From sequence record MT446400.1: 51,200 nucleotides of DNA; one strand, written 5' to 3'. This DNA comes from Escherichia virus TH26. The position numbers were made by a program, and so were the translations under genes. The notes under the pieces are model-generated. The model made no database searches, had not been told where the DNA came from, and saw only the letters and a list, made by a program, of their open reading frames with translations. This document shows positions 50,644-51,019 of this stretch, piece by piece (position 1 is the stretch's first letter; every line of letters starts with the position of its first letter).

Positions 50644-50861
50644 AGCTCATTACAACAGCGTGCTCTGATTGCCCTTGACCTTGACCCACTACCTAACTTG
50701 GTGTTGATTGAAAGCCGATAGGCTCTAGGAAAAAGTTGGGGTAGGGACCGTATTTAAGTCCGATAGGACGTTGGGCTTCCCCTCCTCGGAGATAAAAATT
50801 TTAAAATAATAATGTCACAACTTCCCCTCCTCGCCGCCTCAAAATAAAAATAATATAGGCG

Positions 50862-50975
50862 AACAAAGTGAGCAATTGCCACAATTCTAGTCTCGTTAAT
50901 ATCGGACGAACGAAGTGAGTAATTGAAACAATTCGAGTCTAGTAGCTTTGTTACGAATTCTAGTCTCATTAATTC
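50862..50975. repeat. Imperfect ~38-nt tandem direct repeats (2.5 copies)
   Basis: gaacaaagtgagcaattgccacaattctagtctcgttaat / gaacgaagtgagtaattgaaacaattcgagtctagtagc / acgaattctagtctcattaat; preceded by duplicated cttcccctcctcg elements at about 50776 and 50821. Confidence 0.5.
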
Positions 50976-50987
50976 TGTAGCAATATT

Positions 50988-51019
50988 AAAAAAAAAAAAA
51001 AAAAAAAAAAAAAAAAAAA
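50988..51019. repeat. Homopolymeric poly(dA) tract (~32 A) followed by an A8 run
   Basis: Read directly from the sequence. Confidence 0.9.

Follow-up and report, generated by a model that had tools for sequence, protein, structure and literature searches.

A variable, module-built non-coding spacer with an expanded A-tract beside the inferred terminal-repeat boundary of the chasevirus TH26

Main finding

The repeat cluster and the long A-run near the end of the TH26 contig are best read, with moderate confidence, as parts of a variable, module-built non-coding spacer located between the nrdB terminator and the left boundary of a direct terminal repeat (DTR) of about 2.8 kb. We infer that its most likely role is that of an early regulatory or junction spacer. 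Since the spacer is homologous across all Carltongylesvirus genomes, it represents a new allele of a control region that exists in these relatives but is undescribed, rather than a novel type of element. Judged by alignment, the uninterrupted run of 32 A residues (A32) within it corresponds to a short A-tract that every relative carries, here lengthened to an unusual degree.

Genome layout and identity of the phage

The window is the whole 51,200-nt NCBI record, which consists of a circle of 51,051 bp and a wrap of 149 nt. Self-comparison revealed that positions 51052–51200 are identical to positions 1–149 (period 51,051), in agreement with the end duplicate reported in an earlier sequence-only reading of this DNA. 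The duplicated contig end is a product of assembly, in which a collapsed terminal repeat was wrapped around, and does not mark a biological end. The spacer matches 68 chasevirus (Chaseviridae) records, with Escherichia phage Bp10 as the top match (82.7% over 641 nt), and the phage is a Carltongylesvirus-like chasevirus, i.e., a phiEcoM-GJ1-like coliphage. Membership in the Chaseviridae was judged by a single-subunit T7-like RNA polymerase, genes on one strand, a genome of about 52–56 kb and similarity to members; a PF00940 polymerase, one-strand gene orientation and nucleotide similarity to members were all found. A search of IMG/VR yielded few chaseviruses, and an nrdB-based locus search there gave mostly unrelated phages.

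The genes are oriented on the minus strand throughout the genome. This gene order places the repeats and the A-run in a non-coding stretch of about 745 nt, which extends from nrdB, the last gene, to the polymerase gene, the first. The flanking features are:

48443–50557, minus strand: gene for the single-subunit RNA polymerase, which comes first downstream of the spacer (Pfam PF00940, E = 3.6e-19)
253–1371, minus strand: nrdB, encoding the small subunit of ribonucleotide reductase, the final gene ahead of the spacer (Pfam PF00268, E = 3.1e-50)
188–203, minus strand: terminator-like hairpin with a T-rich tail right after nrdB, closing the late gene block (extended hairpin z = -3.55)

The location of the terminator-like hairpin between nrdB and the spacer suggests that the spacer is a separate unit. 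The T-run, as the A-run reads on the coding strand, was also considered as the late terminator and rejected: it is not preceded by a hairpin, a scan for intrinsic terminators across 50300–51200 returned no terminator-like site, and a separate terminator-like hairpin follows nrdB at 188–203. The stretch had been described as free of open reading frames, which holds insofar as it contains no credible gene; mechanical ORFs of 71, 49 and 46 aa do overlap it.

Physical ends and the direct terminal repeat

Chasevirus genomes are linear, lack permutation and carry terminal repeats of about 3 kbp, and neither promoters nor packaging signals have yet been described for them (ICTV profile, PMC12842549). 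The DTRs recorded for Y2, PM1, 4HA13 and JL1 measure roughly 2.6–3.1 kb. In the following, a slash marks the junction. The Y2 and PM1 records, in which both repeat copies are present, start at CCT(A/G)TCG / G. The start of the 4HA13 record coincides with the DTR predicted by PhageTerm, at CCTATCGGAC / TTAAATACGG (junction CCTATCGGAC / TTAAAT), and the JL1 record carries a redundancy of 2,995 nt that ends at CCTAT / CGGAC. The right DTR boundaries align to window positions 47977–47985 in all four records. By homology to these four relatives, the ends and the extent of the TH26 repeat would be as follows:

50757–50762, minus strand: inferred left end of the virion DNA, i.e., left boundary of the DTR (ends of Y2, PM1, 4HA13 and JL1)
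47977–50762, minus strand: inferred DTR of about 2.78 kb with the RNA polymerase gene and small ORFs, present here as a single collapsed copy (homology)

The contig appears circular because the assembly collapsed the DTR to one copy. As the ends of the relatives map to 50757–50762, the repeats and the A-run would be unique DNA just outside the left DTR boundary and not a terminus. In the virion, the spacer would therefore precede the right-hand DTR copy, and in concatemers it would be located just upstream of the cut. The proposal that the region is a terminal or packaging-related feature is thus correct in that a physical end adjoins it (50757–50762). It does not extend to the A-run, which lies about 230 nt from that end, and among the elements pointed out, the CTTCCCCTCCTCG box is the only one that forms part of the conserved element at the end.

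Both inferred DTR junctions (minus strand, about 50758–50762 and about 47980–47985) share the sequence TCGGA(C/G), which lies within CTATCGGACTT at the left junction and within AGAGTCGGAGCA at the right one, and in JL1 and 4HA13 each junction contains CGGAC. TCGGA(C/G) may be the core of the cut site. Its occurrence at both junctions renders the exact DTR boundary ambiguous by about 5 nt.

The terminal repeat of 2,339 bp published for PYps23T (MW147598) disagrees with the other four determinations (PMC8762354). It is nested inside the interval of the ~2.6–3.1 kb DTRs recorded for those four phages and bracketed by ATTAGTTGGA, with both of its boundaries immediately after this sequence (window equivalents 50625 and about 48315). 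These boundaries could be nicks or promoter-associated ends.

The conserved boundary element

The inferred left end falls within a conserved element that is flanked by an insertion on its distal side:

50692–50788, minus strand: family-wide conserved boundary element of about 100 nt (BLAST and 13-genome alignment)
50776–50788, minus strand: proximal G-box with the coding-strand sequence CGAGGAGGGGAAG, which forms the outer arm of the boundary element (13 genomes, 6 genera)
50789–50833: insertion of 45 nt that creates a second CTTCCCCTCCTCG box at 50821–50833 (comparison with relatives)

The boundary element exhibits two small hairpins with TATC loops (50758–50769 and 50713–50724), then AACTTTTTCC; its coding-strand components are the G-box CGAGGAGGGGAAG, the hairpin GTCC-TATC-GGAC, TTAAATACGGTCCCTACCCC, AACTTTTTCC and the hairpin AGCC-TATC-GGCT. 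The ends of the relatives fall in the 3' arm or at the 3' edge of the hairpin GTCC-TATC-GGAC. Mean column identity reaches 79% in an alignment of 13 genomes from six genera, and for chaseviruses of Erwinia, Pectobacterium and Aeromonas, BLAST retains only window positions 50698–50811 of the spacer. A DTR boundary in the Chaseviridae is recognized by a CC-TATC-GG hairpin at the ends of the relatives, between the lysis/nrdB and polymerase genes, and this arrangement was found at 50692–50788. The extent of the conserved element in the alignment makes the box at 50776 a part of it.

The first hairpin shows compensatory changes, from GTCC/GGAC to CTCCC/GGGAG in PM1 and ATCCC/GGGAT in phiA050 and Faunus. 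RNAalifold pairs the G-box with TCCCTACCCC, with weak covariation. A structured RNA in the boundary element was rejected as weakly supported, given a covariation term of about 0 and a single-sequence z-score of 0.69, and Rfam covariance models gave no match at E <= 1 on either strand of 50300–51200.

CTTCCCCTCCTCG occurs in exactly two copies 45 nt apart (50776–50788 and 50821–50833), and these correspond to the duplicated elements of the sequence-only reading. The 45-nt insertion that gave rise to the second copy is also present in Bp10, TH28, TH33, MLP1, EcoM1 and FXie, and is absent in GJ1, flopper, JL1, ST32 and PYps23T. In the records of TH28 and TH33, both flagged as "UNVERIFIED," the site of the distal CTTCCCCTCCTCG box is occupied by CTT followed by a C11–C12 homopolymer, which reflects either a sequencing error or another hypervariable run.

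Repeat modules, palindromes and promoter-like sequences

Distal to the boundary element, the spacer is built from short repeated modules:

50851–50940: 47-nt tandem repeat, 1.9 copies, each unit consisting of module B followed by module A (Tandem Repeats Finder and repeat search)
50860–50878 and 50907–50925: module B, two copies of ~19 nt (CGAACRAAGTGAGYAATTG; coding strand CAATTRCTCACTTYGTTCG)
50883–50900, 50930–50943 and 50956–50973: module A, three copies of ~20 nt, the last as a core (AATTCKAGTCT..; coding strand TTAAYGAGACTNGAATTG...CAAT)
50956–50973: third module A core, AATTCTAGTCTCATTAAT (repeat search and motif scan)
50875–50885 (in repeat unit 1) and 50922–50932: operator-like palindrome ATTG-N3-CAAT (genome count against shuffles)
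51071–51122, minus strand: TCGGTCA(A/G)CTGTATCT, two copies 36 nt apart, also at 20–35 and 56–71 via the wrap (repeat search)

Tandem Repeats Finder reported a period of 47 with 1.9 copies and 84% matches at 50851–50940, and the repeat search identified a pair of 37-nt copies offset by 47 nt. The 18-nt core AATTCTAGTCTC(G/A)TTAAT recurs a third time at 50956–50973; this core has two matches as opposed to 0.11 expected by chance. Of the 2.5 copies of a ~38-nt repeat described previously, the copy number is therefore about right, whereas the period is 47 and not 38. The motif AATTYKAGTCTC is present three times in the spacer and has one 1-mismatch match elsewhere in the genome. Module A is thus essentially confined to the spacer, which rules out the repeat core as a genome-wide phage promoter. 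Among close relatives, module A is present in one to three copies and module B in none to two, and between 192 and 316 nt separate the boundary from a fixed anchor in the genomes in which both were found. The TCGGTCA(A/G)CTGTATCT motif is kept in every genus examined.

The palindrome ATTG-N3-CAAT occurs 10 times in the genome, compared with 1.2 expected copies and a maximum of five in 200 shuffles. Eight of the 10 lie in early or non-coding DNA (50932, 50885, 48342, 48112, 47931, 47683, 46827 and 133). This enrichment suggests that the palindrome is an operator, and it is considered here a putative operator for a dimeric DNA-binding protein. It is often extended to AATATTG-N3-CAATATT with GCATGTAAT before it, and forms early intergenic clusters at 46827–48342, 123–133 and 50875–50932.

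In the phiEcoM-GJ1 record (EF460875), the depositors annotate a putative sigma-70 promoter inside a module. A promoter scan of 19 close relatives detected TT(G/A)ACG-18-TATTAT in 11 of them, at a constant spacing from the cut. A sigma-70 promoter was defined as -35 and -10 hexamers with a spacing of 16–18 bp on the coding strand, and by this definition no -35/-10 pair was found on the coding (minus) strand of TH26 between 50300 and 51200, where the insertion of module B separates the promoter-like hexamers. Scanning the other genera for TT(G/A)ACG-18-TATTAT detected none, and the -35-like part is not conserved there. The best-conserved part within a genome is the spacer of the putative promoter, GAGACTNGAATTG, which depends on the genus (GGCTC in PM1). 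Conservation within a genome combined with change between genera fits a phage-specific binding protein better than the host RNA polymerase. TATAAT followed by the T-run was rejected as a conserved promoter because Bp7 lacks TATAAT.

The A-tract and the AT-rich block

Upstream of the modules on the coding strand lies a hypervariable part of the spacer:

50982–51041: AT-rich block, ...ATATT-A32-TTAT-A8-TATTTAATAG (26 genome tails aligned by the TTCGAACA anchor)
50988–51019: uninterrupted A32 (T32 on the coding, minus strand), the expanded allele of a length-polymorphic A-tract (direct reading)

Direct reading confirmed the uninterrupted A32 at 50988–51019, which is the sole homopolymer in the genome at thresholds of at least nine for A/T or at least eight for G/C. 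It had been called rare in phage genomes. It is indeed uncommon, as the only run of nine or more in this genome, but more than 120 IMG/VR stretches hold A30, many of them at contig ends, and rarity alone therefore says little.

The comparison with related genomes that had been put forward as a check was carried out on 26 genomes, i.e., TH26 and 25 relatives comprising isolates and metagenome contigs, and revealed a short A-tract at this site in all relatives, with A25 in Bp7. The tract measures A6–A13 in 24 of the 25 relatives, and the surrounding block reads A4-T-A10-TTAT-A9 or AAATT-A7-13-TTATATAAAA-T5. The presence of at least two independent long alleles at a site that is always an A-tract points to replication slippage in a loosely constrained spacer. 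It is plausible that the A-run is a DNA-bending element, and it is regarded as a candidate for one.

Role of the spacer and alternative explanations

In the proposed mechanism, the boundary element would be the terminase cut site that generates the left DTR end, and the modules would be bound by RNA polymerase and/or a dimeric regulator. The module array, with its palindromes and promoter-like hexamers, would control transcription from the spacer into the RNA polymerase gene. Being outside the DTR, the array would act only on the right-hand copy of the DTR or on concatemers formed in replication; it counts against this reading that the polymerase gene copy at the left end would have no spacer. 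The AT block would serve as an easily bent or melted spacer upstream of the module array, with a loosely constrained length that drifts by replication slippage.

Alternatively, the modules may be sites for the small terminase subunit, with the A-tract bending the DNA toward the cut 100–260 nt away. Such a role in packaging recognition, similar to that of T7 pacB, lambda cosB or SPP1 pacL, is possible but unlikely. It is consistent with the location of the region immediately beside four mapped termini, with an order of modules, AT block and boundary element that all genera share, the module sequence itself being genus-specific, and with the near-exclusive occurrence of the module motif in this region, the one 1-mismatch match aside. 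However, the module palindromes are also found at early intergenic sites far from both boundaries, the copy number and spacing of the modules are very variable, and their role as binding sites is putative.

We consider it quite unlikely that the spacer is a replication origin in which the direct repeats act as iterons and the dA:dT tract as a DNA-unwinding element. Iteron origins and the AT-rich region of T7 origins are the analogues of this arrangement. At least three direct repeats do adjoin a near-pure A/T block of 40–60 bp in non-coding DNA, with further conserved repeats flanking them; this juxtaposition of repeats and AT-rich DNA is the pattern required of an iteron origin, but by itself it is not specific. 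Repeat number and spacing vary, a candidate initiator protein was not identified, and the GC skew is monotonic and gives no origin signal, although it is uninformative in this respect because every gene lies on one strand.

The length of the A-run could in principle be a sequencing or assembly artefact, with a true tract of about 10–13 as in the relatives. TH26 is an outlier among the 26 genomes, and Illumina libraries stutter on long homopolymers. In addition, OWJB01000229.1, a metagenome contig of 23,032 nt, ends right at the A-tract (its first sequence being ...ATTATTTAATAGTCGG), which suggests that the tract breaks other assemblies too. The Logan contig SRR11772972_255, 51,085 nt in length, matches the window without a difference along 4,933 nt, and its first residues are a run of exactly 30 A. 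The Logan assembly uses k=31 and keeps each 31-mer once, and its contigs can therefore not contain A32. A break at k-1 = 30 A indicates a tract of at least 30 in the SRR11772972 reads, as expected from a run of ~31 or more or from a mixture of lengths, and thus requires reads with runs of 30–31 or more. Furthermore, the independently sequenced Bp7 carries A25, and the record crosses the tract with unique flanks on both sides. The A-run is at least 30 long, its recorded length of 32 being provisional, with the caveat that the record and the Logan contig may share reads. The earlier suspicion of an assembly artefact does not hold up in its gross form, since the Logan contig stops at A30 and Bp7 has A25, and a length artefact as a whole is very unlikely. 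The 51,085 nt of the Logan contig are not fully accounted for by the period plus A30 and A31. A literature search found no paper mentioning SRR11772972.

Only a slim chance is given to the reading of the A-tract as a slippage-driven tunable element in which A25 and A32 are selected alleles and the length sets polymerase expression or concatemer cutting. Here, length would act by changing how far apart the TCGGTCA..CTGTA repeats and the module array by the cut lie, how they are phased or how the DNA between them melts. The tract resembles hypervariable homopolymer (contingency) tracts in that close relatives have single-base runs of 6 to 32 residues at one and the same site, with at least two independent long alleles. 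In contrast to such tracts, it is non-coding and has no known on/off phenotype. If true, this reading would describe a contingency-type switch in a strictly lytic phage.

The reading in which the genome physically ends in the A-run, or in which the run is a tail appended to that end, has next to no probability: the run lies 32 nt from the linearisation point of the contig, but the contig end is merely the 149-nt wrap, the ends of Y2, PM1, 4HA13 and JL1 map about 230 nt away (50757–50762), and the tract is internal in 26 of 26 genomes, the relatives carrying their shorter A-tract at the same site.

Comparison with known systems and significance

At the T7 concatemer junction, the terminal repeat is flanked by the short-repeat arrays SRL and SRR, and pacB is associated with the phiOR promoter. 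This junction, in which short-repeat arrays and packaging signals that contain promoters lie outside the terminal repeat, would be the closest analogue of an early regulatory or junction spacer in TH26. The two differ in several respects. The TH26 DTR measures about 2.8 kb and includes the polymerase gene, as opposed to 160 bp in T7; TH26 is a myovirus; its repeats are modules of 20–47 nt where T7 has heptamers; and it carries a long dA:dT tract, while any phage promoter in it would be putative. SPP1 pacL and lambda cosB combine A-tract bends with repeated terminase sites. They resemble the TH26 region in having repeated short motifs and an A-tract within a few hundred bp of a terminase cut, whereas the TH26 motifs, which are putative binding sites, also occur away from the cut. 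The spacers of phiEcoM-GJ1 and other Carltongylesvirus genomes are homologous to that of TH26, with 73–83% identity over 640 nt, and have the modules, the boundary element and the A-tract site in common. Compared with these, TH26 possesses A32 in place of A7–13, an extra 45-nt duplication, two module B insertions and a broken sigma-70 consensus.

For annotation, the "circular" contig would be opened at about 50760 on the minus strand, with a DTR of about 2.78 kb extending to about 47980. With regard to chasevirus biology, the boundary element found in six genera, the palindromes and the hypervariable AT block are candidates for the cut site, operators and a tolerated spacer, respectively. The A-run is mainly a practical hazard, as it breaks k=31 assemblies and its length is untrustworthy without read-level checks.

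Further sequence signals

The sequence (A)CATTAGTTGGAWWTGA is found in at least six copies, all on the coding strand and within the first ~20 kb of the gene map:

50634, 48324, 44708, 40893, 40765 and 30811 (starts), minus strand: (A)CATTAGTTGGAWWTGA, with weaker occurrences near 47475 and 41035

The 9-mer is expected about 0.2 times per strand, and a 16-mer scan returned 14 matches as opposed to 2.5 expected. It is a candidate phage RNA-polymerase promoter or site-specific nick site.

At 150–192 (wrap 51163–51195), immediately past the nrdB terminator, the palindrome CAATATTG lies between the arms of a 12-nt inverted repeat, ATTCCCAATATT...AATATTAGGAAT, which is kept in close relatives. The 46-codon ORF (MVGQLYLDMGSFTIGQLYLAEICSNRKPTIKYFFYN-F10; 50986–51126, minus strand) overlaps both TCGGTCA..CTGTA repeats and would read the T-run as poly-Phe. 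Its GxLYL...SN.KP pattern recurs in PM1, Faunus and phiA050 with varying start and stop, and this conservation is probably that of the DNA and not of a gene.
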